A stretch of DNA of 64,000 nt from an uncultured Rhodospirillales bacterium (GTDB lineage Bacteria; Pseudomonadota; Alphaproteobacteria; CAZRBL01): assembly GCA_964598335.1 (NCBI GenBank), contig CAZRBL010000011.1:1634-65633 (forward strand), given 5' to 3'. The position numbers and the translations under genes were made by a program. Below are positions 1,249 to 42,881 of this stretch, piece by piece. The notes under the pieces are model-generated. The model searched no databases. It saw only the letters and a list, made by a program, of their open reading frames with translations, and was not told where the DNA came from. Positions within the stretch are counted from its first letter, which is position 1. The number at the start of each line of letters is the position of its first letter.

Positions 1249-2391
1249 ATGAGCCGTAACAAACAGACCCCGGAAAGGGAGCAGGGCGGCGCGGATGCAG
1301 TGGCCTGCCAGGGCGGCGGCGGGCACGGCCCCTTTGCCTGGGGCTGGCTCGATCGGGCCCTCGAAGAGATGGAAATCAACCCCGATTTCCAATTCAACCC
1401 GCAAACCTGGAGCGGCAGCAGCGCAGGCGCGATGAATGTCATTATCGCCGCGCATGGCATGATGGCCGGCGGACCGGCGCGCGCGCGTGCGGACCTGGCC
1501 GAGTTCTGGCCGGAAGTTGCCTCCTTTTCGCGCGGCCTGCCGAGCAATCCGATGCTGAACGGGACCTTCGCAGGCAACCCGATGGCCGACTGGCTGATCT
1601 ACATGAATACCGAAGTGCTGATGCACTGGCTGCCATGGTACAGGCCGGTCGATATCGCGCCCTTGCGAGAACTGATCGAAAAGCGTGTCGATTTCGATCT
1701 TCTCAAACAACCGGACGCGCCGCGCATCTTCATAAATGCGAGCAATGCGCGCCGCATCGGCCAGTCGCGGATTTTCACCAATGCTGATCTCAGCCCCGAT
1801 GCGGTGGTGGCCTCGGCGGCCTTGCCACAGCTTTTCCAGCCGGTCGACATTGATGGCGAGCTGTATTTCGACGGCGGGCTGACGCGAAACCCGCCTTTGC
1901 CGACGGATCGGGAGGATTTGTTCGCGATTGCCATCAACCCGACCGAACGGCACTCGGTTCCGAAAACGGCGATGGAGCTGACCGCACGGACGCAGGAGAT
2001 ACAGCTTAATGCCGCCTTTCGGCGCGAGCTTGAGCAGATCGAACTGCACAATGATCGTCTGGATGCGGGTTTGACGAGCGGCCTGCCGGTGGATCACAAG
2101 GTAAGGCTGCATCTGATCGAAGCCGATGGCTATATCGATCATTTCAGCTTTTACAGCCGCCGCATGGCTGATTGGTCAATGTTTCAGGCGCTATTCGAAG
2201 CGGGCCGCAAGGCCGGCCAGGACTGGCTTGATGCCCATGGCGCCGATTTCCGGCAGGACTCGACCTTCCGCCTTACCGATAAAGAGACCGCGGCAGAGCA
2301 TTTGAACGATATCCGGCCGCTTGTGCCGATCAATGAAATGATCCAGCGCGGTCCGAGCGGCAAGAACGGCCCCGCACCCGTAACGCCCTAG
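1249..2391 (+). CDS. Patatin-like phospholipase
   Basis: Oxyanion loop QGGGGHG, nucleophile elbow GSSAG, catalytic DGG (YFDGGL), ASAALPQLFQPVDIDG. C-terminal extension ends GPAPVTP. Confidence 0.88.
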   Translation: MSRNKQTPEREQGGADAVACQGGGGHGPFAWGWLDRALEEMEINPDFQFNPQTWSGSSAGAMNVIIAAHGMMAGGPARARADLAEFWPEVASFSRGLPSNPMLNGTFAGNPMADWLIYMNTEVLMHWLPWYRPVDIAPLRELIEKRVDFDLLKQPDAPRIFINASNARRIGQSRIFTNADLSPDAVVASAALPQLFQPVDIDGELYFDGGLTRNPPLPTDREDLFAIAINPTERHSVPKTAMELTARTQEIQLNAAFRRELEQIELHNDRLDAGLTSGLPVDHKVRLHLIEADGYIDHFSFYSRRMADWSMFQALFEAGRKAGQDWLDAHGADFRQDSTFRLTDKETAAEHLNDIRPLVPINEMIQRGPSGKNGPAPVTP

Positions 2392-2402
2392 TTTGTATCG
2401 CC

Positions 2403-3245
2403 ATGGCGGCTTCGCGGCACAATGTGACGCTTTCCCTTGTGCTGCCGGGAATGGGGCCGCCCGCCGATATTCATCAAAGCCTGAAAGCGCTTCTGGCGGC
2501 ACCGGATCTGCGGCTGCACAGCCTCTATGCCACCGGTATCGATACGCTGCCTGCCGCCCTCCTCGCGCATGGATTGACCCAAGGCCAGCCCGCCGGCCGG
2601 ATCAGCTCTGCACTTGACCGGTTTTACGATGGGCTCGGCAGGCATGCCTTTTACGGCCCGTTTGACCGGACCTATGCCGCACAAATGCTGGGCGCGGAAG
2701 AAAGCCGGATCGACAGCCTTTTCGACCATGACACGCCGCCTTTGTCGCAAACGGCGTGGCGCGATGTGGTTACCGAAGCGTTCGGCTGGCAAGCCGGTCA
2801 GCCGCTTGCGATCAATGGTCTGGGATTAGGCGTGACCGATCTCAGGCGCGGCATTGCCGAGGTTTTGACGCCGCCTCATGATATCGACCGGCTGATGGCG
2901 GCGACGATCAACCCGCTTCAATTTCCGCCCTTGGCCTGCGCCGGCCTGCTCGCCGGCCACAGCGCCTCGGCCACGCCGCATATTCTGGTCGATCAGGCCG
3001 TGCGGCACATGGAGTGCGATGCCGTCCTGGTCCTGCGCGGCGATTGGCGCGGCACCCCGGAGCACGTCGACGAGACCATCGGGCTGCAGGAAGAGGCAGG
3101 CCTGATCCAGTCGATCGAGCAGGCCAATCTGCGGGTTGAGATCATCGGCCTCGGCCCGGTCTGCATTGATGCGGCCCTCCTGGCCGAGGGGGTGACGCCG
3201 CCCGCCATCAGCGCGGCGCTCGATGAGGTATCGGTCAGGGATTGA
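2403..3245 (+). CDS. Catalytically degenerate patatin-like paralog
   Basis: Collinear by eye with the upstream patatin (AALLAHGL...ALDRFY; LMAATINPLQFPPL), but the GGGxxG, GxSxG and DGG motifs are all replaced. Confidence 0.55.
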   Translation: MAASRHNVTLSLVLPGMGPPADIHQSLKALLAAPDLRLHSLYATGIDTLPAALLAHGLTQGQPAGRISSALDRFYDGLGRHAFYGPFDRTYAAQMLGAEESRIDSLFDHDTPPLSQTAWRDVVTEAFGWQAGQPLAINGLGLGVTDLRRGIAEVLTPPHDIDRLMAATINPLQFPPLACAGLLAGHSASATPHILVDQAVRHMECDAVLVLRGDWRGTPEHVDETIGLQEEAGLIQSIEQANLRVEIIGLGPVCIDAALLAEGVTPPAISAALDEVSVRD

Positions 3246-4050
3246 CCGGCGGTCTCTTTTCCGGCTGCGGTGCCAGTGCCGTCTTCGGCTTGGCGCCCAG
3301 CGCGGCCCGCATTTCCTTCGGCTTGTCGCTGAATACCCCGTCGATGCCCAGCTCAGTGAGCGCGCGGCCGACGGAGGGGTCGTTGACGGTATAGGCACGC
3401 AGCTCATAGCCGGCTGTCTTGACGGCTGCGACCGCGGCCGGCGTCAGCGCCTCGGCGTCGGCGTGGATCGCGATCACGTCCAGCTTGCGCGCTTGCTTCT
3501 GCCAGTCGTCGTCCAGCGATCGCAGCAGCAAGGCGCGGTCATATTCGACCGGTGCGAGTGAGGTGATGGTCGCCAAGGCCTTCGGCTCGAAACTTGAAAT
3601 CAGCGGCCGGGGCAGGGTGGCATCCCACTGATCCTGCAGCGTACGAACGACGGCGAAGGCGGTGTCGCGAGCCAGCCTTTTCGTCGTCTTGATCTCGATT
3701 TGCGGCCGCAGCCCCAGCCCGGCACATAGGTCCAGCGCCTCGGCAAGGCTGGGGATCGATTCCGGACGCTGTTCGCTGCCGGCATTGATCCCTGCAAGCT
3801 GCGCGAATGACTTTTTGCGCAGATAGCCGGTAGCATCGGTCGTGCGGTCCAGGGTGGCGTCGTGAAACAGCACCGGCTGATCATCGGCAGTCAGACGGAC
3901 GTCGAATTCGACGGTGTCGCAGCCATCACGCTTGGCTTGGCGGATGCCCGCCAGCGTGTTTTCCGGCGCGTTGCCCATATTGGTACGATGGGAGATAACC
4001 TCGATACCGCCCTTTTGCCGCGGCCTGCCGGTTCTGTCTTTTCTGCTCAT
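3235..4050 (-). CDS. ugpQ: Glycerophosphodiester phosphodiesterase (UgpQ/GlpQ family)
   Basis: SHR...APENT, VEFDVRLTADD..LFHD.TLDRTT, QIEIK, YTVND, GIDGVFSDKP. Confidence 0.88.
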   Translation of the reverse strand: MSRKDRTGRPRQKGGIEVISHRTNMGNAPENTLAGIRQAKRDGCDTVEFDVRLTADDQPVLFHDATLDRTTDATGYLRKKSFAQLAGINAGSEQRPESIPSLAEALDLCAGLGLRPQIEIKTTKRLARDTAFAVVRTLQDQWDATLPRPLISSFEPKALATITSLAPVEYDRALLLRSLDDDWQKQARKLDVIAIHADAEALTPAAVAAVKTAGYELRAYTVNDPSVGRALTELGIDGVFSDKPKEMRAALGAKPKTALAPQPEKRPPVNP

Positions 4051-4120
4051 TGCGGGACCCCTCCCGTGCCCATGCTGTCACCGCGAGCCGGACCCTCCGA
4101 CTCGCGGTATCAGTGTGCGA

Positions 4121-6241
<2,121 letters not shown>

Positions 6242-6290
6242 TGTCTTTTTATCTCTTTCCACACGGCCGGATTGCCGTGTTTGGTTTGGG

Positions 6291-6452
6291 GCCGGTCCGC
6301 TCCTCACCCCCGCCACTGCGTTCTGGTGCCGGGCCTCCCGCGCCCCCGCTTTGGCCACCCCGTCAGGATACTCTCGTAAGGTGGTCAGGGCGGGGGCGCG
6401 GGAGGCTTGGATCAGTCAGACATCACAATGCGGGGGTGAGGGGCGGGCCGGC
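6291..6452. repeat. Nested long inverted repeat in the rpsO-pnp spacer; relative of the 131-bp element family
   Basis: Outer arms gccggtccgctcctcacccccgc / gcgggggtgaggggcgggccggc; inner arms gcctcccgcgcccccgc / gcgggggcgcgggaggc; loop contains CAGGATACT. Confidence 0.75.
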
Positions 6453-6463
6453 GCAACTAAAAA

Positions 6464-6733
6464 CTACCGACGCAAGCCGAGAGGCTCAACGATCGTCCGA
6501 TAGCGGCCTTCGTCTTTCTTGCGCAGATAGTCGAGCAGGCGGCGGCGTTGGCCGACCATGCCGAGCAGACCGCGACGGCTGTGCAGGTCGCCTTTGTGGC
6601 TTTGCATGTGTTCGGTGAGGTTCCCGATCCGCTCGCTCAGGATCGCGATCTGGACTTCGGGAGATCCGGTGTCGCCCGGATTGCGGGCATATTCTTCGAT
6701 AAGCGACTCTTTGCGCTCTTGCGTAATCGACAT
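6464..6733 (-). CDS. rpsO: 30S ribosomal protein S15
   Basis: [43 protein letters not shown]; 89 aa. Confidence 0.98.
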
Positions 6734-6773
6734 CGTATTTTCCTTTTCTTCGGGCCCGTCTCTGCGGGCGGTT

Positions 6774-7718: not shown

Positions 7719-7720
7719 TC

Positions 7721-8119: not shown

Positions 8120-8148
8120 GATATTCTTACACTGCTTCCGTCTTGAAA

Positions 8149-8276
8149 CCTCTCTTCCCAGGGAAAGAGAGGATGCAGGATCATGGGGTTGGCATTGCCA
8201 AGCCCTTGATCCTGACGGTGAAGGGGATTGCCGCCTTGCCCCTCACCGCGGCCCTTTCCCCTGCGGGAAAGAGGGC
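8149..8276. repeat. Two REP-like palindromes in the infB-rbfA spacer
   Basis: cctctcttcccagggaaagagagg (8149-8172) and cccctcacc..gccctttcccctgcgggaaagagggc (8239-8276) resemble the common alphaproteobacterial CCCCTCACC...CCCTCTCCC-N-GGGAGAGGG repeat. Confidence 0.6.
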
Positions 8277-8281
8277 ATTTA

Positions 8282-11717: not shown

Positions 11718-11741
11718 TGTGCCTGTCTCACCGCCCTTGAC

Positions 11742-13986: not shown

Positions 13987-14751
13987 ATGCTCAACATACC
14001 CCATTTGCCGAATTTCGCAAGGGGCGGCAGCGCATCCGGTCTTTGCCTTGTTCTGATCATCGCGCTGGCCGCTCCCGCGGCCGGCCAGCATGCGCAACAT
14101 GATCATGATCACGGTCATCATCACGATCATCATCACGGATCCGCCGACGCCGGCGATATCGAGGCGTTTTTCGCCGATGTTGCCGCTCGCCTTCCCGGAA
14201 ATTTCACCAACCAGGCGCAGATCGATGCAGCTGTCGCGGACGGCAATGCCGATGCCGAGAAAGATCGTCGCTTCATGCGTATGACCAAGGTAACGGCGCC
14301 GGCGCTCGGAGAGCATGTCTATTATCTCGAATGGCGCCGCCCGGATGCCGATGGCGCCATCAGCCGCCAGCGGATCTGGAGTTTTCATGCGGATCAGTCA
14401 GGCGCGCCGCGGATGAAATTCTTCACCATTCGCAATCCCGAGCCGCTGGCGGGGCAGCCTGCCGACTCGGCCGTCTTCGCCGGTCTCCGCACGGACGATC
14501 TGATCGGTTATCCGGAAGCCTGTGATGTGAATTGGTATCGGACCGATGACGGCGTCTGGCATGGCCGTATTCCTGCCGGTGCCTGCACCATCGTGACCCA
14601 GCGAACCGGCAGAACGATGACCATCGATGCGCATGTCGAATTGCTGCCGGACCGCTTTCACTATGATGAGGCCGGTACGCTGGACGGCGGCATCGTCGCC
14701 TTTGATGTGCCCCAGACGCTGACACGATTCGAGGCGATGCGCACGGAGTAA
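13987..14751 (+). CDS. CpcT/CpeT-like (T-type bilin lyase fold) exported protein with His-rich segment
   Basis: Signal-like LCLVLIIALAAPAAG, then HAQHDHDHGHHHDHHH, then LPGNFTNQAQ..YYLEW..RQRIWSF..ACDVNW..GACTI pattern of the CpcT family (recalled). Confidence 0.6.
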   Translation: MLNIPHLPNFARGGSASGLCLVLIIALAAPAAGQHAQHDHDHGHHHDHHHGSADAGDIEAFFADVAARLPGNFTNQAQIDAAVADGNADAEKDRRFMRMTKVTAPALGEHVYYLEWRRPDADGAISRQRIWSFHADQSGAPRMKFFTIRNPEPLAGQPADSAVFAGLRTDDLIGYPEACDVNWYRTDDGVWHGRIPAGACTIVTQRTGRTMTIDAHVELLPDRFHYDEAGTLDGGIVAFDVPQTLTRFEAMRTE

Positions 14752-17108: not shown

Positions 17109-17194
17109 GTTTCATACATAGCGCCGTGCCCCGGCGGTTGAAGCTGCGCCGGTCGTTTCGTAGGCTGAGCGGAAAGTTCCTCACGAGTCTGCGG

Positions 17195-18187
17195 ATGCCC
17201 CAGCCCTTATCCTTTTCCGACGCCGATCAAACACGGTTTCGCGATTTTCTCGTCGACAGTTTCCCCGGCTTTACTGCTGAAAAAGCCATGCAGGTTGTTG
17301 ATGACGTGCAACAGACGGGGCTGGCGCGAGCTTATGGCTACGGCTCGCTGGTCGATAGCCCGCACACCGAGATCGATAACAAGGTGCCGGCCTCGCTGCC
17401 CGGGTGGAAAAAGGGCTTTGTCTGTCAGGATACGCATTACCGCGGCACCACCGACAAGCCGGGTATGACGCTGGGCCTCAATGATAGCGAGGATCCTGCG
17501 GCGCGGACCGAGGGTGCGGTCCTCGAAAGCCGGGTGCGCGATGTCGATCAGGCGATCGATTTCTTCGACAGGCTGGCTCAGCGCGAAATACCGCCGGGCA
17601 TGGATATCTACACCTTTGATTTTCTCGAGGTGGAAACGGCCAAGGGGCCGATCCGCGGCATGGTCTGTGTCGCCAACAAACTCAGCGAACTCTATGTCGG
17701 CGACCGTCTCGATCCACGTGAAAAGGGCACGCTGGTCGCTGAGCGACTTGGCGATGAGCGATTCGATGAGAATGGCGAACCGCTCAACGCCGAGAAGGGA
17801 CGGCGGACGAATTTCCAATACGTCCAGAACGCCATCACCAATGATATCGAACTCGGCCGCGAGCCGGATCGCGATATGCTGGAAGTGTTTCTCGAGGCCG
17901 GACGGGCGCGGCAAGCGATGGATGCCGACCGCCGGCGCCGCTATGAGGCGCTCGAATTGCCGCTCACCGATGCCCAGCGCGGCGATGTCGCGGCGGCCGC
18001 CCGCCGTGCCGATGTCATGTCCGAGGCCAGGCTGTCGGAAGCGCTGGACGGGATGTCGCCGCTGCCGCCCCCGGGCGGCCCGCGCATCGGTATCGTCGCC
18101 AAACCGGCCCTGCCGCATCAGGGCGCAAAAAACGCCGCTGCCGAATGGCCGAGGGCCAAGGCGCCGAGCTTTCCGAAAAAGCCTTAG
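17195..18187 (+). CDS. ChaC-like gamma-glutamylcyclotransferase with long C-terminal extension
   Basis: YGYGSLV, GWKKGF..DTHYRGT.DKPGMTLGL, and conserved Glu in LAQRE. About 130 extra residues ending KAPSFPKKP. Confidence 0.78.
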   Translation: MPQPLSFSDADQTRFRDFLVDSFPGFTAEKAMQVVDDVQQTGLARAYGYGSLVDSPHTEIDNKVPASLPGWKKGFVCQDTHYRGTTDKPGMTLGLNDSEDPAARTEGAVLESRVRDVDQAIDFFDRLAQREIPPGMDIYTFDFLEVETAKGPIRGMVCVANKLSELYVGDRLDPREKGTLVAERLGDERFDENGEPLNAEKGRRTNFQYVQNAITNDIELGREPDRDMLEVFLEAGRARQAMDADRRRRYEALELPLTDAQRGDVAAAARRADVMSEARLSEALDGMSPLPPPGGPRIGIVAKPALPHQGAKNAAAEWPRAKAPSFPKKP

Positions 18188-19983: not shown

Positions 19984-21156
19984 CTAGGGCTGCGGGGCGT
20001 CTTTGGCTAAGTCTTGCGCCCTGCGTGACGGGCCGGCCGGCGGCGGCTTGCTGCCGGGTTTCGGCTGATTGGCCGGGAAGATGAGGAAGTCGCGGGCCGT
20101 CACCGGTGCGCCGTCTTCACCCACCGGGCACGAATCGGGATCGCCGCCGGCATTGATCATGCCGTTCGCATGATCGAGCCGTCGTGCCAGATCGTCCCGC
20201 ATGCCGGACCGATACCAGTCATTGACCAGGGCCAACCGGCCGGTGCCCTCAATGAAATTGCGACCGTCGGGCAAAACACCGATATCGGACAGCCAGGCGC
20301 TGTCGGGCTCGACTCGCGGGCAGCCGGCGGCGGCAACATAGGCGTATTGATAACGCTCCATCATCCGCACGATCTTGCTGTCATAGGCGGCGCGGCGTTC
20401 GGGCAGGGCAAACCATTGGTCGAAAGCGGCCCTGATCGCCTTCAGCGGACGCATTTCCTCCGCGCCGCGGCTGCGGCGCCGACGCATCTCATAAGCCTCG
20501 GCCAGATCGGCATAGGGCGCGTCGCGGCGTGCCTGCTTGCTGCGATAGCTTTTCCACGGGCCGTCATGACTCGCTTCCTTCAGCTCGAAGCAGACATGAA
20601 CGGCCATCGCCTCGGCGGCGGCTTCGAGCATGCGCTGCACCAGAACCTCGTTTTCCGGCGCAAGGTTGACCCGCAGCCATTCGCCGCTGTGGTCCTGCCA
20701 GACATGAAACAGCTCATGCGCCAGGCTCGCGACCTGTTCCTCCAGCGTGCCGGTGTCGCTGATCCCGACCAGCTTCGGCTCGCTGTCGGCGGCATAATAT
20801 CCGAGCACCTCTTCACTGAGGTCGGAGATCACCATCACGCCCGCTGTCTCCGCCGCCTTGAGCAAAGCGCGGCCGTCGGGAATTTTATCGAGGAGATCGA
20901 TGGCGGCGCGCAGGCGACGGCTCTGCTCGGGATGTTGCAGCGCCTGGCGCGCATGAGCGGCGACATCAGCAATCTCGGGCTCTTTCGAACCGCTGTCCCG
21001 GTCGCGTGCGAGCAGCCGCCGCGGCCGGGATGAGGCTGCGTGCGCCTGCCGCGGCGGCGGCAGGTCCGATAAAGCAGGAGGTTCGGTCGGGAACATCAAG
21101 GGATAACGCACGCTGATTCCATAACGCTCCCATTGTGCGGTGAATCGGGTCTGCAA
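19984..21156 (-). CDS. HExxH putative zinc metallopeptidase (DUF6782-like)
   Basis: SLAHELFHVWQ followed by RMLEAAAEA; Pro/Lys-rich tail. Start uncertain. Confidence 0.6.
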   Translation of the reverse strand: MQTRFTAQWERYGISVRYPLMFPTEPPALSDLPPPRQAHAASSRPRRLLARDRDSGSKEPEIADVAAHARQALQHPEQSRRLRAAIDLLDKIPDGRALLKAAETAGVMVISDLSEEVLGYYAADSEPKLVGISDTGTLEEQVASLAHELFHVWQDHSGEWLRVNLAPENEVLVQRMLEAAAEAMAVHVCFELKEASHDGPWKSYRSKQARRDAPYADLAEAYEMRRRRSRGAEEMRPLKAIRAAFDQWFALPERRAAYDSKIVRMMERYQYAYVAAAGCPRVEPDSAWLSDIGVLPDGRNFIEGTGRLALVNDWYRSGMRDDLARRLDHANGMINAGGDPDSCPVGEDGAPVTARDFLIFPANQPKPGSKPPPAGPSRRAQDLAKDAPQP

Positions 21157-28289: not shown

Positions 28290-29483
28290 ATGTCAAAGCT
28301 TCGCACCGGCCTGCTTTTCTGCGCCGCGCTTGCTGTCCCCACGCTCTCGACCCTGGCTGCGGCGAGCGAGACGCTCGTCTCCCGCGGCGGCCGCATCCCG
28401 GTAGTGAGCGGCGTTGAGATCGTTACCCAGGCGACGGGGCTTGAGCGTCCCTGGGCGATTGCCTGGCTGCCCGATGGGCGCGCCGTCATCACCCAGAAGA
28501 AGGGCAGTCTGCGCCTGCTCAATCAGGACGGAACCCTTGATCCGGCTGAAATCGCGTTTCCTGTCGCGGTCACCGGGGGCGGTGAATCCTGGGGGCAGGG
28601 CGGTTTGCTGGATGTCGCGCTGCATCCGGACTACGCGGAAAACGGCTGGCTGTATTTCACCTATTCGACGGGTGATCCATCCGCCAATCGCACGGCGGTC
28701 GGTCGGGCTCGGCTCGAGGATGGTGCGCTGACCGGATTTGAGGAAATCTGGGAAAATCCGGATGACAAGCGCAGCGGCGCCCATTTCGGCTCGCGGCTGC
28801 TGTTTCTGGACGACGGCAGCCTGTTGGTCAGCATCGGTGATGGCGGTAATCCGCCGATTATGTTCGACGGCGACGAGATCCGGAAACAGGCGCAGAATCC
28901 TGCTACCGCATTCGGCAGCGTTATCCGGCTGAACGATGACGGCAGCGTGCCCGAAGACAATCCCTTCGCCGGCGATGAGGAGGTTCTGGCCGAGATGTGG
29001 AGCTTTGGTCACCGAAACATTCAGGGCATGGCGATCGACCCGGAGACCGGGGCGATCTGGGCCAATGAGCATGGCGCTGGCGGCGGCGACGAGTTGAACC
29101 GGCTCGAGGCCGGCAAGAATTATGGCTGGCCCGCCGTCACCTTTGCCCGCAATTATCGCGACGGGTCGCTGATCGCAGATGCCATCGACGGTCCCGAATT
29201 CACGGCGCCGACCGTCGTCTGGCTCGACACCAACGCACCCTCGGGCCTGCTGGTCTATCGCGGCGAGGCCTTTGCCGATTGGGACGGCATGATCCTGTCC
29301 GGCGGTCTGGTGACACAGGATTTGCGCCTGATATCGCTGGCCGAAGACGGCGGTCGCCCGAGCGAGCAGCGGCTGCCGATCGGCCACCGCGTGCGCGATG
29401 TCCGCCTCGGCCCGGACGGTCAGCTTTATGTGCTCACCGATGGTGAGGAGGCGCGGCTGCTCCGCCTGACACCGGCTCCCTAA
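28290..29483 (+). CDS. PQQ-dependent sugar/sorbosone dehydrogenase (beta-propeller)
   Basis: Signal peptide; GLERPWAIAWLPDG, HFGSRL, SFGHRNIQG, EHG..GGDELN, NYGWP, RVRDV. Confidence 0.92.
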   Translation: MSKLRTGLLFCAALAVPTLSTLAAASETLVSRGGRIPVVSGVEIVTQATGLERPWAIAWLPDGRAVITQKKGSLRLLNQDGTLDPAEIAFPVAVTGGGESWGQGGLLDVALHPDYAENGWLYFTYSTGDPSANRTAVGRARLEDGALTGFEEIWENPDDKRSGAHFGSRLLFLDDGSLLVSIGDGGNPPIMFDGDEIRKQAQNPATAFGSVIRLNDDGSVPEDNPFAGDEEVLAEMWSFGHRNIQGMAIDPETGAIWANEHGAGGGDELNRLEAGKNYGWPAVTFARNYRDGSLIADAIDGPEFTAPTVVWLDTNAPSGLLVYRGEAFADWDGMILSGGLVTQDLRLISLAEDGGRPSEQRLPIGHRVRDVRLGPDGQLYVLTDGEEARLLRLTPAP

Positions 29484-30880
29484 TGCGATAACGAGGGAGA
29501 ACGGGCGCGCAGCTTCGCGAGAAGGCTAGCGAGCGCCGGGATCAGCAATAACGGTAAAGTCGCCGGTGCGGGGATTGCCGGGATGACATATTCCAGCGTG
29601 ACAGAGGCTGATGCCCCGGCGCGGTCGGTGACGGTGATGTCGATCAGATAGCTCTGATTGCCGCGGCCGCCGAAGATCGCGAGAATCGTCTCGTCGTCCA
29701 GCGTGCCGCCGACATTCTGGAAAACATCGGTCGAAGCCGGGTCGGTGACTCCCTCGAGAAGGGTGTGCACAACCTCCCCGTCATCATAGGTCACCGCCCA
29801 GCTCAGCTGCTCGAATCCCTCGAGCTCGGCATTGGCCAGCATGTCATATTCGGTGAAGGTGGCGCCGATTGAGCGCGTGCGCGGTGGTTGCAGAGGCGGC
29901 GCGAAGAGAGGCGGGAATGGCGCCGAGTTCTGATAGAAGGCGGTCGTCCGTGCCTGTGCGGTGTCGGCGCTGCTCAGCCCCTCGGCATCCGTTGCGGTCA
30001 GCCGCCACTCGACCTCGGCATCGGTATCGCTTGCATCAAGCCGCGGTCGCGTGATGCCGGAGGAGGCGAGGGTGATCAGACCGTCCGGACCCGGCTGCGC
30101 GGTGAAATCGATCGGCGGGTAGCCGGGCGATTGCAGCGCGGCGCCGTCGCTGACCCGCGTCCAGCTATAGCCGGTTATGTCGCCATTGGGGTCGCTCGCA
30201 CTGCCGTCTACTGAAGCGGTGAGGTTGAAGGCATCGAATGGCTGATTGATGCTGGCGGTCGAAACAGTGGGCGGCGTTTGAGAAATGACGCCGGTCAGCG
30301 TCAGGCTCACACTGTTCAGGCGCGCATCGTCCGAATAAGACATCCGCATATCCCCGATGCCGGTCGTGCCATAGGACAGATCATTAAAGCTGCCGAAGAA
30401 TTCAGCCAGAATTTCAGCGCTGGTGAAACCGGCATCGCCGCTGCCGAGGATTGATTCATTGTTCCAATCCGCCGCCTGCCGGACTTGACCGGTGCGCAGT
30501 TGGGGAGCGCTTGAATTCACATCGCTATGCGTGATCCTGACGGCATCGCCGGTCAGATAGTTCTGGCTGCCTGCGAATCTGTCCATCGAGAAACTGGCGC
30601 CGGTAATGACGTCCACGGCAAGAAATTGCGCATAATTCGGATCATTCTTGAAATCGAAGATCCACCGCGTGCAGTCATTGACGCCGTCTACCGAGCCGCC
30701 CTGGCTCCCTCCGCAAATGTTTGAGCCGGATTCGTTCAGACGGTCTCGCTGCGCGATGCCCGTATTCGTGACGCGCTGGGTTAGGCTTGCCGTCACCGAG
30801 ACTGTCGTCGCCTGCGCTGCAATGGTCGCACCGACCGACATCCAGATTACCGCAAAAAGCGCGATGGCTGCTCGTGCCAT
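29480..30880 (-). CDS. Secreted protein with PKD-like domains and PEP-CTERM/VPLPA-like sorting tail
   Basis: Signal peptide; SASDPNGDITGYSW..LTATDAEG; ends IPAPATLPLLLIPALASLLAKLRARS. Confidence 0.7.
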   Translation of the reverse strand: MARAAIALFAVIWMSVGATIAAQATTVSVTASLTQRVTNTGIAQRDRLNESGSNICGGSQGGSVDGVNDCTRWIFDFKNDPNYAQFLAVDVITGASFSMDRFAGSQNYLTGDAVRITHSDVNSSAPQLRTGQVRQAADWNNESILGSGDAGFTSAEILAEFFGSFNDLSYGTTGIGDMRMSYSDDARLNSVSLTLTGVISQTPPTVSTASINQPFDAFNLTASVDGSASDPNGDITGYSWTRVSDGAALQSPGYPPIDFTAQPGPDGLITLASSGITRPRLDASDTDAEVEWRLTATDAEGLSSADTAQARTTAFYQNSAPFPPLFAPPLQPPRTRSIGATFTEYDMLANAELEGFEQLSWAVTYDDGEVVHTLLEGVTDPASTDVFQNVGGTLDDETILAIFGGRGNQSYLIDITVTDRAGASASVTLEYVIPAIPAPATLPLLLIPALASLLAKLRARSPSLSH

Positions 30881-31021
30881 GGAAACTCCCCGATCCTCAG
30901 GCTTAACGTCCATGTAATAGCTTACGCTTGGGCAATTGTCTCCTGCTTTTAATGCTATTGGTCGGCGTCACTATCGCCGCTATAGGCTGCCTCACGCTCG
31001 ATCCCCCCAGAACCGGCCGTT

Positions 31022-32191: not shown

Positions 32192-34696
<2,505 letters not shown>

Positions 34697-34774: not shown

Positions 34775-35548
34775 ATGAGCATTCTCTATCACTGGGCGGC
34801 CCTGATGCTGAAAGAACGGCAATTGGTGGCACGTTTCGATCCGGGCGCGGATATCGACGATCTTGCCGCCGTTACCGGCTCGGCCTCCGACCCCGGCGCC
34901 GATCTGAAGTCGGTTCGCGGCATGAATGCCGATCTGGTCGACGGCCTGCTTGATATCCGGCTTGAGCGCGCGAATACCGCCAAAGCCCTGTTGATGAAGA
35001 GCGAAGATGCCGCGCCGGCCTCGCATTTCGCGCTGGTCGACAGGGACCCGACCCTGCGTAATGCGCTGCTGAATGATGTCAACTACGCGGATCGCCGGGC
35101 CAAGTCCGGCATCCCGCATGAGGCGGCGCAGGATTATATTGCGCTCTCGGCGGCGGTTTATCCGACGGCCTGGTTCCCCGATTATACCTCCGGCGCACTG
35201 TCCGTGCTGGCAGAGAATGAGAAGGTCATGGCCGGGTTTGCCGCCTATGACCCTGAAACGGCGATGGAGCTGGCGGATTTCGTGGCTGAGCAAAGCGATC
35301 GTTCGGCGCTTGAGAATCTGCCGGCCGATCTCCGCGCCGAACGTTTTGTCGAGGCGCATCGCCGGATCCGCGATGCCTGGGATGCCGAGGATTTACCGGC
35401 CGAATGGATGAACCGCGGCAAGACCATGTTCGAGGCGATCGATAAGGCGCTCAGCCTTGTTGCCGGGCCCGATGGCGGTAAGCCCAAGGCGACGGTTCGG
35501 CCCAAGCCGTCCTCCGATAAGACGGTCGGGCCGCCTCCCAGCCCCTGA
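34775..35548 (+). CDS. Hypothetical all-alpha protein with Pro/Lys-rich tail
   Basis: 257-aa ORF filling the gap after gyrB; ends KPKATVRPKPSSDKTVGPPPSP. Confidence 0.65.
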   Translation: MSILYHWAALMLKERQLVARFDPGADIDDLAAVTGSASDPGADLKSVRGMNADLVDGLLDIRLERANTAKALLMKSEDAAPASHFALVDRDPTLRNALLNDVNYADRRAKSGIPHEAAQDYIALSAAVYPTAWFPDYTSGALSVLAENEKVMAGFAAYDPETAMELADFVAEQSDRSALENLPADLRAERFVEAHRRIRDAWDAEDLPAEWMNRGKTMFEAIDKALSLVAGPDGGKPKATVRPKPSSDKTVGPPPSP

Positions 35549-35575
35549 TACGCTTATTTTTCACGCTGCTGCGTT

Positions 35576-35905
35576 GTGATGCTGCCGGCTGTCCCGCCAG
35601 AAGCGCTGCGCTGCCTGCATGCTCTGTTTCGCGGCGGCCTCGGTTCATCGCCGAGTCTGGATCTGTTCCATCACTGTGAACAGGTTTTCATCGATATCGG
35701 TATCTATGATGAGCGAACGATGACCGCCGCCGTCGCCCGCTATCTTGCCATGGGCACGGTGATCGAGGAGCTGGCGCCCGATATCGGCGGCGATCCGGAA
35801 ACGCATGAATGGATGCTGGTCATCGCCGCCAGCCAGCCGCTGGTCGGCGGTGTCGGATCGCTGCGCTTCGATGCCGACGCCTTTCGCCGGGCGATGGGGC
35901 TGTGA
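35576..35905 (+). CDS. Hypothetical protein
   Basis: 109-aa ORF filling the space between neighbouring genes; no recognised motif; weak RBS. Confidence 0.45.
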   Translation: MMLPAVPPEALRCLHALFRGGLGSSPSLDLFHHCEQVFIDIGIYDERTMTAAVARYLAMGTVIEELAPDIGGDPETHEWMLVIAASQPLVGGVGSLRFDADAFRRAMGL

Positions 35906-35911
35906 ATCCGC

Positions 35912-36625
35912 TTACGATTGCCGCGGTCTTCGCAAGCCCGCGATTACCTTTAACAGCGCCGTTGGTATCAGTAGCCAAGCCCCAATCGCTGGTATGGCGG
36001 CGGCCTTAACCGTGAAGCGGAAATTGTCTAGGCCGACCACGCCGCTGCTCTCATCCGGGCTGAAGAATGTCAGTGACGCCGTCGAAACACCGGCCTGATT
36101 GACGGTTTGCGTGCCGGTAGTATCGCGCGTTTCAATCAGCGCGACGCTATTAACAAGGATCCCATCCTGATCGGCAAGCGACAGCGTCCCGCTCTCACCA
36201 TTCGTTCCGCCGTCGAGGTCATGGATATCGAAGTCGATCAGGGTCACCGGGCGGCTGAAATCGATATCGAGGGCCAGCCCGCTGGGGCTATTCTCGAAAA
36301 AGGTTTCGATCAGCGGTTCCTGCTCGCTGCAGCAGAAACTGAAACCGTCGGTGTTGATCCGAAATGTTTGTTGGCCGCTCAGAGCGCTGTCATCGGCTAT
36401 GAGGCTGAAATCGACTTGCGTCAGTAGCCGCCCTTGAGGATCGCGGATACTGAAGGAAAGCGGCCCGGCATAGCCGGACGTATAGCTTTGATCGAAGCCG
36501 ATGGCTGCTTCGAACAGCCCGCCGCCAATGGGTGTGGCGGAGACATCAAATATGAGCGCAGAGGCAGAGAGGGGAGGTATCATGAACCCCATCACTGCGA
36601 ACAGAATTATTGAAATGTTCCTCAC
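35912..36625 (-). CDS. Secreted protein with IPTL/PEP-CTERM-like sorting tail
   Basis: Signal peptide ending SASA; GGAGG RBS; ends AIPAIGAWLLIPTALLKVIAGLRRPRQS. Confidence 0.68.
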   Translation of the reverse strand: MRNISIILFAVMGFMIPPLSASALIFDVSATPIGGGLFEAAIGFDQSYTSGYAGPLSFSIRDPQGRLLTQVDFSLIADDSALSGQQTFRINTDGFSFCCSEQEPLIETFFENSPSGLALDIDFSRPVTLIDFDIHDLDGGTNGESGTLSLADQDGILVNSVALIETRDTTGTQTVNQAGVSTASLTFFSPDESSGVVGLDNFRFTVKAAAIPAIGAWLLIPTALLKVIAGLRRPRQS

Positions 36626-36713
36626 GCGACCTCCTCAAACTCGTATGTTCACTACTCGATTTTGGCCCGCTCAGTCAAGGCATCATGCCGCCATGCCGTG
36701 AGTCTAGTCCGGA

Positions 36714-38702: not shown

Positions 38703-38828
38703 GGCTTGGCTGTCGCTTAATCGGGTTGTCCCTTACTAATATACGGCTCTGTGCTTGCCGCGCCACCCATAGCTGACTTATGGTGGCCTCGTCATTTTAG
38801 GTTCATATTTCCCCATAGAAGCACCGCA

Positions 38829-39122
38829 ATGTCGAGATTCACCCTACAAGGTCCACAGAAGGCGGTCAGCGAAGACGGCGTGATCGTCGCCTTCGCCGGA
38901 CGTCATGGCCTGCTTTACGAAACCGGCGGCTATCGTTTGACCGTCCCCTGCGAATCGGGCCGCCGGGAAAACGGCGAGGCCGGGATCATCGCCTATGTCT
39001 CGGGCGTCACCAGCTGGGACCAGCCCGCGGGCGGCGCGCTCGACGAGGCGGATCGGCGGAAACTGGCGGCCGATCTGACCGCTGCTGTGACCGAAATGGG
39101 AGGCTGGTGTGATGTCGCCTGA
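38829..39122 (+). CDS. Imm74-like immunity protein
   Basis: AGRHGLLYETGG.RLTV..E...GIIAYVSGVTSWD.P...LDEADRRKL matches my recollection of the Imm74 pattern (GR.GL.Y.E...I.SE..IY..SI..WD.P). Confidence 0.6.
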   Translation: MSRFTLQGPQKAVSEDGVIVAFAGRHGLLYETGGYRLTVPCESGRRENGEAGIIAYVSGVTSWDQPAGGALDEADRRKLAADLTAAVTEMGGWCDVA

Positions 39123-39906
39123 TCAGATGCCGGAAAACCCTGTGGCCAAGGCGCTGTTCATGATTGAGCATACCGCCGCTCTGCAGGGCTGGCTGCATGG
39201 CCCGCGCGCGCAGAAAACGGCTGAAGCGCTGTCGCAGGAGCCTTATTTCGACGATCTTGTCGACCTGTTCCTGGCGCGTCGCAGCGACAGTCCGCCGGAT
39301 ACCGAAACCATCGCCAGGCTGTCCCACACCGTCGCGCAATACGGCGCGATGGATATTCCGGCCGACAGCCTGGTCTATTTCTCGGGTCCGGAGATCAAGA
39401 CGGCAGAGGCGCATGCGGCGCGCGATCCGTCGATTTCCGTAATCCACGGTACGGCAGCCGGGGCGGCTCTCGAGATCATGCAATTGTTCAGCGACCCGCT
39501 CGATCCCGATGCCGGCGGTCCGATTCCCTTCGCCATCGGCACCGCAATGTGGGATCTCGCTTCCGAACGCACCGCGCTGGAGACGCCGCCCGGGCATATC
39601 CGCGTCTATGTTAATCCGGAAATCGGCTCGCACCCCGACAGCACTTTCCGTTCCGTCGAATTGCCGGCCCTTCTGGCCCGGGAGGATTCATCCCGTTTCT
39701 CGCTCAGCCTGATCAGGGTGGATAAGCAAAGCGGCGAAGAGCTGGTTGAGACGCGGCCTTTGGAGCAATGGCTCGATTATAGCCGCACGCGAATGTCCGG
39801 CATGGCCAGCCGCCAGGGCGTCTCGATCAAACCGGACGGCACGGTCGAGTTCTCAATGAACAAGCCGACGGTGGGCGGTGCAGGGAGTGTTTCCCCCAGC
39901 CCGTGA
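39112..39906 (+). CDS. ADP-ribosyl cyclase/CD38-like (Tox-ARC-like) NAD+ glycohydrolase candidate
   Basis: Ordered motifs VYFSG...MWDLASERTA...GHIRVYV...PDSTFRSVELPALL; overlaps the immunity-like gene. Confidence 0.6.
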   Translation: MSPDQMPENPVAKALFMIEHTAALQGWLHGPRAQKTAEALSQEPYFDDLVDLFLARRSDSPPDTETIARLSHTVAQYGAMDIPADSLVYFSGPEIKTAEAHAARDPSISVIHGTAAGAALEIMQLFSDPLDPDAGGPIPFAIGTAMWDLASERTALETPPGHIRVYVNPEIGSHPDSTFRSVELPALLAREDSSRFSLSLIRVDKQSGEELVETRPLEQWLDYSRTRMSGMASRQGVSIKPDGTVEFSMNKPTVGGAGSVSPSP

Positions 39907-39971
39907 TCGGTCGATAAAAATCTTCGCCCGCGCTATTGCGTGAAATTTTACACTTATGTTACAAAACGGAT

Positions 39972-40322
39972 ATGGCTGAAGCGAAACAACTTGTCCGTGC
40001 TGCGGACCACTTGATCGAGCCCCACGCCGACGATCAATCCGGGCCGGATATCGGCGATTTTGCCCATGCGCCGAATCGCGAAGGGCTGCTCTTGCGTCTG
40101 TTCGGTTGCACCCCGCGCTATGGCCGGCCGGAGATCCGGGCGCTGTATCAGGAAGTGGATCAGGAGGATCCCCTGGCCGTTTATGATTACTGTCGTTCAC
40201 AGGGGGTTGAGGTGCTTACCGATCAGGGTGAGCCGGTCCCGCCCTGGCGTGACATCGCCGTCATGCTGAAAGCTCGCGCACAGGGCCTCGATCCGTCGGC
40301 ACCTGCCGACAATGCTGCCTAA
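39972..40322 (+). CDS. Hypothetical 116-aa protein
   Basis: Clean ORF ending 15 bp before the HAD gene; no recognised family. Confidence 0.6.
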   Translation: MAEAKQLVRAADHLIEPHADDQSGPDIGDFAHAPNREGLLLRLFGCTPRYGRPEIRALYQEVDQEDPLAVYDYCRSQGVEVLTDQGEPVPPWRDIAVMLKARAQGLDPSAPADNAA

Positions 40323-40337
40323 TCGGGATACCGGGAC

Positions 40338-41714
40338 ATGGAAATCGCCTCACCGCTCGCTGTTCGCGCCTCCAGCAAGGATGTCGATAACAACATCCTC
40401 AATTATTTCGACAAATGGCGCGAACGCTCGACCAAGGCCTGGGATGGGCTGATGGCGCTATACAATCCTGCCGTCACCGAACAGGTGGTGCCGTCGCTGC
40501 TGCCGCAAATCGCCAGGGGCAACGCCGGGGCCAAGCGCATGCTGCAAAGCATTTTCGATGCCGATCTCGACGTCCTGTCATGGTCTGTTCGAATCGGTGA
40601 TGCCGCGGCGGAACCTGAGCCATATCTGCTCAGCGGCGTTCATACACTCGCCGGCAACGACGTCGTCGGGCCGATGCTGCAGTTTCTTGAGACCGTCAAG
40701 AACGGCGGCGACAACAATGCGATCAATATCGCCGAAGCCGGTTTCCGCAACGCTGCGAGCGCACGCTTTGAAGACCTTCTCGACAAGGCGGCAGCGGGCA
40801 GTAAAGAAGCCACCGAAGAAGTTCAGAACCTGATGAAGCTGGACCTTCTCAAGGTCGGTAAGGAAGCGATCCGCAATAATTATGGCGGCTTTCACAGCCT
40901 GCAGACACTGATCGAGGAAGCGCCGGCACTGGCCCGCCGCCGTGCCGCCATCGAATACACCTGGGATCATCATCCCGAAACCGCCCGGACCCGCGGCCTT
41001 CTGCTCGGCAATGAGCGTGAACTGATCATGGATTTCCGCGCCGAGCGGGATGAGAGCTGCAAGCTCTGGCCCGGCGGCCATGAGGCGATTGCCATGGTCG
41101 CAGAGGCTGGCGGCGTCAATTTCATCGACACCGATGCACGCTTCGAAGATCTGGCCGAGCGGCTTTTTCTGGCGGGCGTCCAGCTCGACCAGATCGACGG
41201 CGTTGTCTGCAAGCGCGACGTCAAGGGGGTCGATCCTGTCCGCAACCCGCCGCTGGACGGTGACAGTGCGATGTCGCGTTTTCGCCGCGCCCTGTTCGAT
41301 AAATGCTACGGCTTTACCGATGACAGCAAGGGCACGCAGGCCAGGGCTGATCTCGGGATTGCGATGTGGAAAAGTCACGGGCTCGAACCGCATGAGGTGG
41401 CGCATTCGGGCGACAGCTACAAGGACGGGATCCACGCCAAGCTGGCCGGGGCGCATTACCTGATGAACGTCAAGGGCGCCGATGTGGAGCCCGCGACGAC
41501 CCGGCTGATGAACATCGTCAAGCCGACCTATCCGCTCGGCCTTGAGATCGCCAATCAGAAGCTTGCGGAGGCCGGCGTTGAGGTCGGCCGCTATCTGGTC
41601 AACGGCATGGAGGATTTCCCCAAGGCCGTGACGATCATGCCGCGCCCGCCGGCGCCCGGCGCCAAGCGCTCGGTCAAGGCCGATATCGCGCCGAATTCGC
41701 CCAGTCCGGTTTAG
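40338..41714 (+). CDS. HAD-superfamily hydrolase with very large cap insertion
   Basis: Motif I DVDNN (residues 15-19), LWPGGHEAI..FIDTD (motif II), SKG (motif III), EVAHSGDSYKDG..A..AG (motif IV). Confidence 0.65.
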   Translation: MEIASPLAVRASSKDVDNNILNYFDKWRERSTKAWDGLMALYNPAVTEQVVPSLLPQIARGNAGAKRMLQSIFDADLDVLSWSVRIGDAAAEPEPYLLSGVHTLAGNDVVGPMLQFLETVKNGGDNNAINIAEAGFRNAASARFEDLLDKAAAGSKEATEEVQNLMKLDLLKVGKEAIRNNYGGFHSLQTLIEEAPALARRRAAIEYTWDHHPETARTRGLLLGNERELIMDFRAERDESCKLWPGGHEAIAMVAEAGGVNFIDTDARFEDLAERLFLAGVQLDQIDGVVCKRDVKGVDPVRNPPLDGDSAMSRFRRALFDKCYGFTDDSKGTQARADLGIAMWKSHGLEPHEVAHSGDSYKDGIHAKLAGAHYLMNVKGADVEPATTRLMNIVKPTYPLGLEIANQKLAEAGVEVGRYLVNGMEDFPKAVTIMPRPPAPGAKRSVKADIAPNSPSPV

Positions 41715-41726
41715 GAGGCATCGCCC

Positions 41727-42881
41727 ATGCCGCACGTTACATTCGCCGGAAACAGCCCCAGCTCGATTCCAATTTCCGACCGCTTTACCGCCGGCCTACT
41801 CGACAGCGACGATTTTGCCCTGCGTGACAGCAAACGCGAACTGGCCGCCGATGCCGTTGTGGTCATCGATCCGGACAGCGCCAGCAGCTATTTTCATGCC
41901 GCGCTGGTGGTCGAGAAAATCATCGATCCGAATTTCAAGAACACCCCGATTATCTATCAGGTGGCCGAGGGTGCGCCGAAGCCGAAAGCCTTTGAACTGC
42001 TCGAGCACCTCAAGGCGAATGGTGTTCTGGGCCAAACCGCCGAGGATTTCTTCGAGATCGCGCATGACGAGACGGATGTGCTGCGCATTCTGCATCAGCA
42101 CCTTGATCAAGGCGGCCCGGCCAAGGCTGATACGCCGCCGCAAAGCCGCGATATCGGCCCGGCCGAGCAAAAGGTGATGGACGACATCAATCAGCGCGGC
42201 GCCGACAAGGAAGAGGGCGAGTTCAAGATCGCCGTCTTCATGTCGGCCTCGACCAAGGACCCCGAAAAGCTCGCCCTGGCCCGCACCCTGGGCAATATGG
42301 TCGGCGAGGCCGGCTGGTCGGCGGTGTATGGCGCCAGCAATGTCGGCGCGATGAATGAATTCGGCAAAGGCGTGCATGAAAGCGGCGGGCATCTGTCCGG
42401 CGTCACCGTGCCCTGGCTGCTTGGCCAGCTGATCCCCGGCGCCGTCGATCCGACCGGTCGTGGCGGCGAAAAGCTCGACGCTGACGGCCTCAACCGCCTC
42501 GATGCTCTGGCGGTGGTCGAAGACACCAAGGTGCGGGTCAAGGACCAGCTGAAAATGTCCGACGCGCTGGTCGTGCTCGAGGGCGGCATCGGCACCTTCG
42601 AGGAACTCGCCTATGTCCTCGAGCTCAAACGCGCCGAGCCCGAGACCTATGGCGACAAGGCGGTGGTCATCGTCAACCGCGACGGTTTCTGGGATCCCGC
42701 CATCGAGATGCTGAAGGCCGACGGCTTTGACCCGAAAACCGACTTCGTCAGCGTCACCGATGAGGCGGGCCTGAAAGCCGCCCTGATCGACCATGCCGAC
42801 GCCATGGGCAAACCGACCCGACCCGCCTTCGAGAACGCCCCGGCGCGCAAGTCCCCCGGGCCGGATCTGTCGCCGAGCTGA
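41727..42881 (+). CDS. LOG/SLOG-family nucleotide phosphoribohydrolase with degenerate N-terminal LOG-like domain
   Basis: C-half VYGASNVGAM, RVK..L..SDALVVLEGGIGTFEEL, VIVNRDGFWDP. N-half ADAVVV..NTPIIY..FELLEHLKANG looks like a decayed copy. Confidence 0.8.
   Translation: MPHVTFAGNSPSSIPISDRFTAGLLDSDDFALRDSKRELAADAVVVIDPDSASSYFHAALVVEKIIDPNFKNTPIIYQVAEGAPKPKAFELLEHLKANGVLGQTAEDFFEIAHDETDVLRILHQHLDQGGPAKADTPPQSRDIGPAEQKVMDDINQRGADKEEGEFKIAVFMSASTKDPEKLALARTLGNMVGEAGWSAVYGASNVGAMNEFGKGVHESGGHLSGVTVPWLLGQLIPGAVDPTGRGGEKLDADGLNRLDALAVVEDTKVRVKDQLKMSDALVVLEGGIGTFEELAYVLELKRAEPETYGDKAVVIVNRDGFWDPAIEMLKADGFDPKTDFVSVTDEAGLKAALIDHADAMGKPTRPAFENAPARKSPGPDLSPS

Follow-up and report, generated by a model that had tools for sequence, protein, structure and literature searches.

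Proline- and lysine-rich C-terminal tails on accessory enzymes of a Rhodospirillales-like bacterium, a candidate sorting or delivery tag

Eight proteins encoded in a 64-kb stretch of DNA from an uncultured Rhodospirillales bacterium (contig CAZRBL010000011.1; hereafter the window) end in a short, disordered tail rich in proline and in lysine or arginine. These tails are non-random, conserved gene by gene between relatives and present on a bona fide toxin family across genomes of differing G+C content (GC). They are probably a tag for sorting or export, of a kind not yet described, and no by-product of the high GC of the window (about 62%). The best reading, to which we give a little under an even chance, is that stand-alone toxins or effectors share a C-terminal tag for sorting or delivery. 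The bearers and their tails, each up to the stop codon, are:

1249..2391 (+), patatin-like phospholipase (Pfam Patatin, E=3.6e-22); tail at about 2314-2388, RPLVPINEMIQRGPSGKNGPAPVTP
3235..4050 (-), GDPD (Pfam GDPD at residues 21-245 of 271); tail 3238-3297, GAKPKTALAPQPEKRPPVNP
17126..18187 (+), ChaC-like gamma-glutamylcyclotransferase (Pfam ChaC, E=5.6e-14, residues 70-194); tail 18146-18184, WPRAKAPSFPKKP
19984..21156 (-), DUF6782 HExxH metallopeptidase (Pfam DUF6782, E=1.4e-32, and Peptidase_M78; HELFH present); tail 19987-20061, KPGSKPPPAGPSRRAQDLAKDAPQP
34775..35548 (+), orphan of 257 amino acids (aa), predicted to be all-helical; tail 35480-35545, KPKATVRPKPSSDKTVGPPPSP
39109..39906 (+), ADP-ribosyl-cyclase (ARC)-family, Tac1-like NAD glycohydrolase (NADase), 265 aa; tail 39862-39903, KPTVGGAGSVSPSP
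40338..41714 (+), HAD-like protein, 458 aa; tail 41643-41711, RPPAPGAKRSVKADIAPNSPSPV
41727..42881 (+), LOG/SLOG nucleotide phosphoribohydrolase-like protein (Pfam Lysine_decarbox and LDcluster4, TIGR00730); tail 42810-42878, KPTRPAFENAPARKSPGPDLSPS
Tail segments abutting the stop codons: 2347-2388 (+), 3238-3294 (-), 18146-18184 (+), 19987-20061 (-), 35480-35545 (+), 39862-39903 (+), 41643-41711 (+) and 42810-42878 (+)

Pfam bore out the family labels of the preliminary description of this DNA for patatin, GDPD, ChaC, the HExxH peptidase and LOG, and only weakly that of HAD. The sole family evidence for the 458-aa protein is a sub-threshold HAD_2 match (E=0.16) at GDxxxD (GDSYKD) together with an IDTDA motif; its C-terminal half is possibly a HAD-type phosphatase, and a PDB sequence search gave no match. 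The orphan had no match in Pfam, NCBIfam, PADLOC or PDB, and its single-sequence AlphaFold2 model was unusable (predicted local distance difference test, pLDDT, 44). The LOG protein has an N-terminal extension of about 165 aa. The ChaC-like protein has a long C-terminal extension, with a proline-rich stretch from about 18059. A literature search on DUF6782 found nothing.

Composition and position of the tails

All eight C-termini first described were found in the window, with the stop codon directly after each. The last 30 residues hold 6, 7, 6, 9, 8, 4, 7 and 6 prolines in the eight bearers, against 0-5 in the other 49 called genes. Genes were called with a codon-usage model, giving 57; the tail statistic counts 55 window genes. 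Stop positions are independent of these calls, and false antisense open reading frames (ORFs) could only raise the background frequency of tails. A strict definition of a tail asked for five or more prolines within the final 25 residues, proline within the final three and a net charge of at least +1. It selected 7 of 55 window genes and 1 of 845 outgroup genes (Fisher p=1.7e-8), the outgroup set being rich in core genes. The outgroup consisted of genes called in 80 nusA-centred loci of other alphaproteobacteria, the 845 coming from loci of at least 58% GC. The tails are concentrated on non-core hydrolases, as the preliminary description had it. Its term 'dispersed' overstates the layout, since the eight genes fall into four neighbourhoods: patatin/GDPD, ChaC/DUF6782, the orphan, and a run of Imm74-like, ARC, small ORF, HAD and LOG genes.

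Proline makes up 26% of the tails, five times its share in the window proteome. Lysine is enriched 2.2-fold and serine is enriched as well, while Asp/Glu fall to 0.3-0.4-fold and hydrophobic residues are depleted. Glycine and alanine show no enrichment. By a hand count of Lys/Arg against Asp/Glu, net charge is positive in seven of the eight window tails. Lysine is as frequent as arginine among the basic residues, and no regular arginine spacing is evident. Proline stands among the last two residues throughout: six tails end in Pro, the HAD tail in Pro-Val and the LOG tail in Pro-Ser. Several contain PP or PPP. GC pressure is not the cause of this composition, because it cannot enrich lysine and should enrich glycine and alanine.

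The bearers lack an obvious signal peptide, in agreement with the first description. Their N-terminal hydropathy maximum over 12 residues is at most 1.4, compared with at least 2.1 in four exported signal-peptide controls from the window. No signal-peptide-like N-terminus and no membrane segment was found in any of the eight (19-residue hydropathy maximum at most 1.44). A common DNA element at the 3' ends, such as a repeat or terminator, was considered and rejected: the tails have no nucleotide motif in common, and their codons are normal and GC3-rich. A milder Pro-containing C-terminal extension, below the strict definition, ends a Flavodoxin_2/NQO-type protein at 43003-43737 (-) with ...MRLKPEVTPNTPGQWR; this gene is missing in the relative.

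Retention of the tails in relatives and on an NADase toxin family

The closest relative of the window is in ENA assembly ERZ10759712 (NusA 81%, PNPase 84% identity). Two of its contigs, L082 and L095, together 43 kb, are syntenic with the window. Orthologue pairs could be recovered for GDPD, patatin, LOG, HAD and the orphan, at 45-64% identity. All five keep a tail of similar length with conserved proline positions, and core and other neighbouring genes in the relatives' loci have no tails. The tails diverge faster than the domains (about 30-45% versus 45-64% identity).

The L082 patatin is 64% identical and ends in RPLVPLSPPLSRHPLHKRPIAPSAP. Between the two patatin tails, 12 of 26 codon positions (25 residues plus stop) are the same, seven of these through synonymous changes, at 45% nucleotide identity. 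The L095 HAD-like orthologue (45% identity) ends ...RRPAAPAGPAMNRPRRSITANSRVSGPAPV, and the P-x-P-V end occurs in both proteins. The L095 orphan orthologue (51% identity) ends ...QKPYPVRPAPRGRAAIGAPLQPGG; VRPxP...GxPxxP is common to both tails. The LOG tail ends ...KSPGPDLSPS in the window, and its homologue P0002 (50% identity, metagenome-assembled genome (MAG) GCA_964553845.1), the single LOG homologue among 5.8e9 proteins, ends ...SPRRSGPVQRPQWGPRPVPNP / ...GPVQRPQWGPRPVPNP. The GDPD orthologue P0004, from the same lineage (56-57% identity), has the tail GPWPPRSAPTQAEEIKADQPPSP and is the only one of the 120 best GDPD homologues to end ...ADQPPSP. In ten outgroup genomes, the GDPD orthologue that likewise follows pnp stops directly behind its catalytic domain, without a tail. 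The gain of a tail by an existing GDPD gene is therefore directly visible.

No orthologue of ChaC or DUF6782 was recovered. The patatin and HAD alignments had no match among genome contigs, and the patatin alignment found only relatives of 34% identity in JGI metagenomes. In tblastn against plasmids, ARC, HAD and DUF6782 had no match and ChaC had domain-level GGCT matches only. The highest-ranking matches of a ThrS search belonged to unrelated marine bacteria of 45% GC, and it was the termini of P0152 that marked it as the true relative.

A proline-rich end might act on stability or expression instead of sorting, by slowing termination or elongation or by serving as a degron or anti-degron that keeps harmful hydrolases low or conditional. 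C-terminal proline impairs termination and provokes transfer-messenger RNA tagging in Escherichia coli, and TnaC stalls at Pro-stop. Pro-stop ends six of the eight tails and three of the five orthologue tails, PP or PPP occurs in several, and excess activity of the bearer enzymes would be harmful. Such control would need only one to three residues, however, which leaves the conserved length of 15-30 residues, the positive charge and the conserved internal prolines unexplained. The HAD tail ends PV, the LOG tail PS and the orphan orthologue PGG, and stop-codon usage of the tail genes does not differ significantly from that of other genes. We regard this explanation as improbable.

The ARC protein is the bearer with the clearest toxin relatives. 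It has no Pfam match itself. A full HMMER search gave 13 homologues. A profile of these 13 sequences matched PDB 9ro8 ('ADP-ribosylcyclase toxin') with E=6e-9 and, with E of about 2e-4 to 3e-4, CD38/Aplysia cyclases. The AlphaFold2 model (pLDDT 84, predicted template modelling score 0.82) has CD38/ARC/BST-1 proteins as its 15 best Foldseek matches, and pLDDT drops below 50 in the tail. The conserved TFRSVEL segment of the family aligns with the catalytic-Glu segment. Profile and model thus agree with the NADase identity proposed earlier and identify the protein as a real ADP-ribosyl-cyclase-family (Tac1-like) NADase. Its neighbour is:

38826..39122 (+), Imm74-like small protein (Pfam Imm74, E=0.041, sub-threshold); its 3' end overlaps the ARC start

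In bacteria, ARC enzymes (Tac1) serve as antibacterial toxins that deplete NAD(P)+ and are neutralised by adjacent Imm74 proteins (Tci1), and known Tac1 delivery uses N-terminal LXG, PAAR/VgrG or CdiA modules (PMC12356396, 2025). An Imm74-like homologue lies directly upstream of an ARC-like gene in three high-GC genomes, i.e., the window, L099 and L105, and the 38826..39122 product is a putative immunity protein of ARC. Like the Tac1/Tci1 ARC-Imm74 pairs of type VIIb (LXG), CdiA and type VI secretion systems, the window pair combines an ARC NADase domain, a STFRSVEL-type catalytic segment and an adjacent Imm74-like gene. It differs in that the immunity-like gene is upstream and overlapping, with a sub-threshold Imm74 match, and in that ARC stands alone: no N-terminal LXG, PAAR, VgrG, Rhs or CdiA domain is present and no such genes are nearby. 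The protein is essentially the ARC domain, with the disordered C-terminal tail as its sole appendage. If ARC is exported, another delivery signal is therefore needed.

Nine full-length distinct ARC homologues (24-38% identity, alignment A4) were compared for their C-termini. Basic, Pro-containing tails are present on eight of the nine, and six have Pro in the last three residues. Their ends are ...FIKRKPASQGAGGP, ...RRGPAQSKRRGPPRP, ...REPKAGGPRPS, ...RTEPRVQTLKP, ...GARVTGPATRP, ...SPHKTSKKLTP, ...YKPPMSPPSVHHRFR and ...LPKPRKNAR. Two tailed homologues are on contigs of 43% and 47% GC. Since lineage and GC vary among these homologues, the tail is tied to the ARC toxin family across both. A search with the ARC alignment returned L099 again and nothing else, and had no match among viral contigs.

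Two ARC homologues are located near ankyrin-repeat proteins. On L100 (JGI 3300028372, 47% GC), orphans near the ARC homologue also end in basic, Pro-containing sequence; two L100 neighbours, with a common C-terminal region, were rejected as proof of a modular tail, being full-length paralogues. The loci L098/L102 (OZ244156.1) and L100 have many genes without a Pfam family among tricarboxylic acid cycle, chaperone and dnaA genes, including ankyrin-repeat paralogues on L100, and several of these genes end in basic, Pro-containing sequence. Together with the 1.65-Mb chromosome of OZ244156.1, this gene pattern is typical of host-associated alphaproteobacteria.

The neutral explanation holds that, as GC rose in the lineage, genes under weak constraint lost their stops and ran on into GC-rich 3' DNA. 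A GC of 62% does favour Pro, Arg, Ala and Gly codons, the tails diverge faster than the domains, and they are commoner on non-core genes. Yet outgroup loci of equal or higher GC have about 0.1% such tails, the enriched lysine is encoded by AAR codons, and at nucleotide saturation the presence, length, frame and proline positions of the tails are kept, with conserved residues reached through synonymous changes. The same kind of tail on ARC homologues from genomes of 43-47% GC means that high GC does not explain the tails. Outgroup counts and these homologues rule out a GC artefact and dispose of the earlier caveat that high GC inflates Pro and Arg; kept length, proline positions, synonymous changes and the tailless outgroup GDPDs likewise rule out a neutral read-through remnant. 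The by-product explanation is largely refuted and very improbable, and a selected protein feature is supported.

Neighbouring genes, cassettes and organism

Tail genes often stand beside small conserved ORFs. The Imm74-like gene precedes ARC, a 103-116-aa ORF precedes HAD and then LOG, and the orphan, ChaC and patatin genes are followed by ORFs of 109, 122 and 280 aa, respectively. The spacings of the first four, all but the patatin pair, can be read straight from the sequence. Two of these have orthologues in the closest relative:

35576..35905 (+), small conserved ORF (109 aa) directly 3' of the orphan gene; orthologue beside the orphan orthologue, L095 12008-12433
39972..40322 (+), small conserved ORF (103-116 aa) directly 5' of the HAD-like gene; orthologue in the same position, L095 9384-9701

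The former may be a partner of the orphan (immunity or chaperone), the latter a partner of the HAD-like protein. The modules separate between genomes: L095 has HAD and the orphan without ARC and LOG, L001 has LOG alone, and L099 and L105 have Imm74-like and ARC. Judged from this distribution, the Imm74-like/ARC, small ORF/HAD and LOG modules behave as cassettes. The thrS-GCS2 island (38751-42881) is a mosaic in which ARC with Imm74-like, LOG, flavodoxin_2 and a CTERM gene are missing in the closest relative, and its cassettes occur singly beside unrelated core genes in other MAGs. A role as anti-phage defence effectors (CBASS patatin, SLOG/TIR-type NADase) was rejected. PADLOC defence models gave only marginal matches for patatin (E=0.0028) and DUF6782 (E=0.00066) and none for the other bearers, and no cyclase or sensor genes are nearby.

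The patatin gene lies after fliI (2-1012) and before a 280-aa gene (2403-3245). In the window (2-3245, +) and on L082 (10816-14264, -), fliI, patatin and a gene for 280-293 aa are arranged head to tail with short gaps. They appear to form one operon in both lineage members, in which the phospholipase would be co-transcribed with the flagellar export ATPase. Yersinia YplA is reportedly a phospholipase exported through the flagellar apparatus. The 2403-3245 gene was considered as a degenerate patatin paralogue and showed no similarity. A distant relative on a 68%-GC contig (L087 7550-11068, +) has two patatin domains in one frame, 34% identical to the window patatin. A Pro/basic stretch, RKRPAASPPPAAAVSRPPRTPAPGT, connects the two domains, and the end of the second is ...RGRESRPRAPKA; this may reflect the conversion of a tail into a linker or the loss of a stop codon.

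The window contains the alphaproteobacterial core block rimP-nusA-ylxR-infB-rbfA-truB-rpsO-pnp and further uvrB, gyrB, recF, thrS, a malic enzyme gene, mgtE and ubiA. Lipid A genes are kdtA, lpxK and an acyltransferase. A TonB-dependent receptor, a Doc/MazE pair, a BLUF+SCHIC AppA-like protein, Mg-chelatase I/D-like genes and the 3' part of fliI are also encoded. NusA shares at most 73% identity with any GTDB species representative (Azospirillum, uncultured Rhodospirillales), which places the contig in a Rhodospirillales-like lineage that has been poorly sampled. From its gene content, the organism looks free-living, flagellated and probably capable of phototrophy. The AppA-like gene (58004-59338, +) and the Mg-chelatase I/D-like genes (61794-64000, +) suggest the beginning of a photosynthesis gene cluster at the right-hand end of the window. 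A CpeT/CpcT-family protein (DUF1001, phycobilin-lyase-like) with an apparent signal peptide is encoded at 14005-14751 (+) in this non-cyanobacterial genome. The Doc (Fic/DOC) toxin and MazE/AbrB-type antitoxin (45891-46504, -) lie between the TonB receptor and rsmE. The pair is missing at the matching site of L095, where a 643-aa ASH-domain CTERM protein stands instead.

Sorting, delivery and alternative roles

As a delivery tag, the tail would be a short linear sorting signal: disordered, cationic, 15-30 residues long, likely of polyproline type and usually ending in P, P-x-P or P-x-x-P. It would be appended to stand-alone cytoplasmic hydrolases acting as toxins or effectors, namely a phospholipase, a phosphodiesterase, the glutathione-degrading ChaC, a metallopeptidase, an NADase and a nucleotide hydrolase or phosphatase. 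The enzyme would fold in the cytoplasm, and a dangerous one would be neutralised by a small protein encoded beside its gene, such as the Imm74-like protein for the ARC NADase. A dedicated apparatus for export or delivery would then recognise the exposed tail through a receptor. The closest known analogue of this receptor is a type IV coupling protein, whose acidic surface recognises unstructured C-termini of positive charge. That an export machine reads the tail, and which machine, we infer from the analysis.

C-terminal signals of type IV secretion system (T4SS) substrates are short, unstructured and net positive, and are located at the extreme C-terminus of unrelated enzymes without Sec signals (PMC11098119; PMC10025392). 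The window tails share these traits with the signals of VirB/VirD4-type systems (Agrobacterium Vir proteins, Bartonella Beps): they are terminal, short, unstructured and mostly net positive, on Sec-less, unrelated enzymes. Disorder within the last 20-50 or so residues, typical of T4SS signals, was found here, as the tails abut the stops, the ARC tail is of low pLDDT and hydrophobic residues are depleted. Several differences stand against this likeness. VirB/VirD4-type signals have an arginine motif, whereas the window tails are rich in Pro and Lys and end in Pro; by inspection, no Agrobacterium-type arginine spacing is evident in them. No T4SS or coupling protein was found in the window, L082 or L095, and the organism looks free-living. 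Immunity-like genes beside some bearers point to interbacterial rather than host targets, a further difference.

The Xanthomonas bacteria-killing T4SS effectors offer a second likeness, a C-terminal recognition element (XVIPCD) on diverse toxins, each with a cognate immunity protein. XVIPCD folds into a conserved domain some 120 residues long (PMC10025392), whereas the window tails are 15-30 disordered residues that cannot be aligned between families. PEP-CTERM/VPLPA-CTERM exosortase signals are, like the tails, lineage-typical C-terminal sorting tags with Pro and basic residues. They consist of a hydrophobic transmembrane helix followed by an arginine cluster, combined with an N-terminal signal peptide, and the eight tails have neither. 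Three other proteins do end in a Pro-containing motif, a hydrophobic helix and an arginine cluster: window 29480-30913 (-) and 35912-36625 (-), and L095 3857-5788 (+). Examples of such ends are ...IPAPATLPLLLIPALASLLAKLRARSPSLSH and ...VPVPSAALLLLPGAIATLCRQALRARPR, and they look like PEP-CTERM/VPLPA-CTERM exosortase-type sorting. The 35912 gene is missing in the relative.

Several observations weigh against sorting or delivery. Apart from flagellar genes, no secretion genes were found in the 64-kb window or on L082 and L095 (43 kb), and specifically no T4SS, type VI or type I secretion gene. AppA (BLUF/SCHIC), Mg-chelatase-like, flagellar and TonB-receptor genes give the organism the look of a free-living phototroph. 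The tails, rich in Lys and Pro, match no described T4SS motif. GDPD is the syntenic orthologue of a housekeeping-type gene, and glutathione synthesis (GCS2) is encoded nearby, so that ChaC could be ordinary metabolism. The Imm74 matches are sub-threshold (E=0.041 in the window, E=0.0077 for the L099 counterpart; Pfam cut-off 27 bits), and the small ORFs beside HAD, the orphan and ChaC could be assigned to no family. The tail is missing from one ARC homologue, P0248, which comes from the 1.65-Mb, 40%-GC alphaproteobacterial chromosome OZ244156.1 (L098/L102). Finally, the link from tail to export is one that we infer. The delivery tag is held short of an even chance because about 107 kb contain no non-flagellar secretion genes and the organism does not look host-associated, and because GDPD and ChaC may be ordinary metabolism and the Imm74 evidence is sub-threshold. 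For the same reasons, a T4SS as the specific machine is far less likely. The preliminary description had proposed a genome-wide effector repertoire with an undescribed C-terminal signal and had named T4SS substrates as precedent; as a T4SS effector repertoire, this is only partly supported. Its core idea of a delivery signal fits the toxin-family bearer and the tails on distant homologues; the assignment to a T4SS does not sit well with a housekeeping GDPD, a free-living look and the search for VirB/D4 or another system, which found none in the window or the 43 kb of L082 and L095.

A cationic polyproline tail could also dock enzymes inside the producing cell, setting the place of action and not the exit. 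Candidate targets would be an acidic phospholipid or intracytoplasmic photosynthetic membrane, the nucleoid or RNA, polyphosphate, and an SH3/TPR-like scaffold. Other bacterial proteins bind DNA or membranes through KP/AKP-rich tails (PhaF/PhaM-type, histone-like tails). The Lys/Arg- and Pro-rich composition with depleted Asp/Glu and hydrophobics resembles such tethers, the substrates of two bearers (patatin and GDPD) are membrane lipids or products of their breakdown, GDPD is a housekeeping orthologue with an acquired tail, and no secretion genes were seen in the three sequences. Tethering does not account for the fact that the bearers are almost all degradative enzymes. Nor does it account for a tail on a toxin-family NADase with an immunity-like neighbour, for persistence across very different genomes, or for the strong preference for Pro at the last position. 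We consider an intracellular tether unlikely. The remaining probability goes to functions beyond sorting or delivery, tethering, stability control and a neutral origin.

C-terminal unstructured cationic secretion signals and ARC/Imm74 toxin pairs are already known. A literature search found no description of unrelated enzymes sharing a Pro/Lys-rich tail some 20 residues long with Pro at its end, of an ARC toxin with such a tail as its sole non-catalytic element, or of tail gain by a housekeeping GDPD. There is a real chance that the tail is a new signal for export by a further route. More specifically, and with less confidence than in a delivery tag as such, several alphaproteobacterial lineages may use a very short, cationic, polyproline-like tag ending in Pro to dispatch toxins and effectors. 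The users would then be, equally tentatively, free-living Rhodospirillales-like phototrophs and reduced, probably host-associated genomes, with Tac1-like NADases and their Imm74-like immunity proteins among the cargo. Housekeeping enzymes such as GDPD might, in the same guarded sense, have been recruited merely by gaining the tag.

If the tail is a tether or a stability element, it would be a clear example of a short linear motif selected throughout a lineage, for which few bacterial cases are on record. If it is a delivery tag, it would allow effectors and toxins of poorly known alphaproteobacteria to be found by a simple sequence rule, and would supply a small portable tag for protein-export studies. 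It would also define a new architecture of ARC/Imm74 modules, without an N-terminal trafficking domain, and show how about 20 added residues can turn an ordinary enzyme into a secreted factor.

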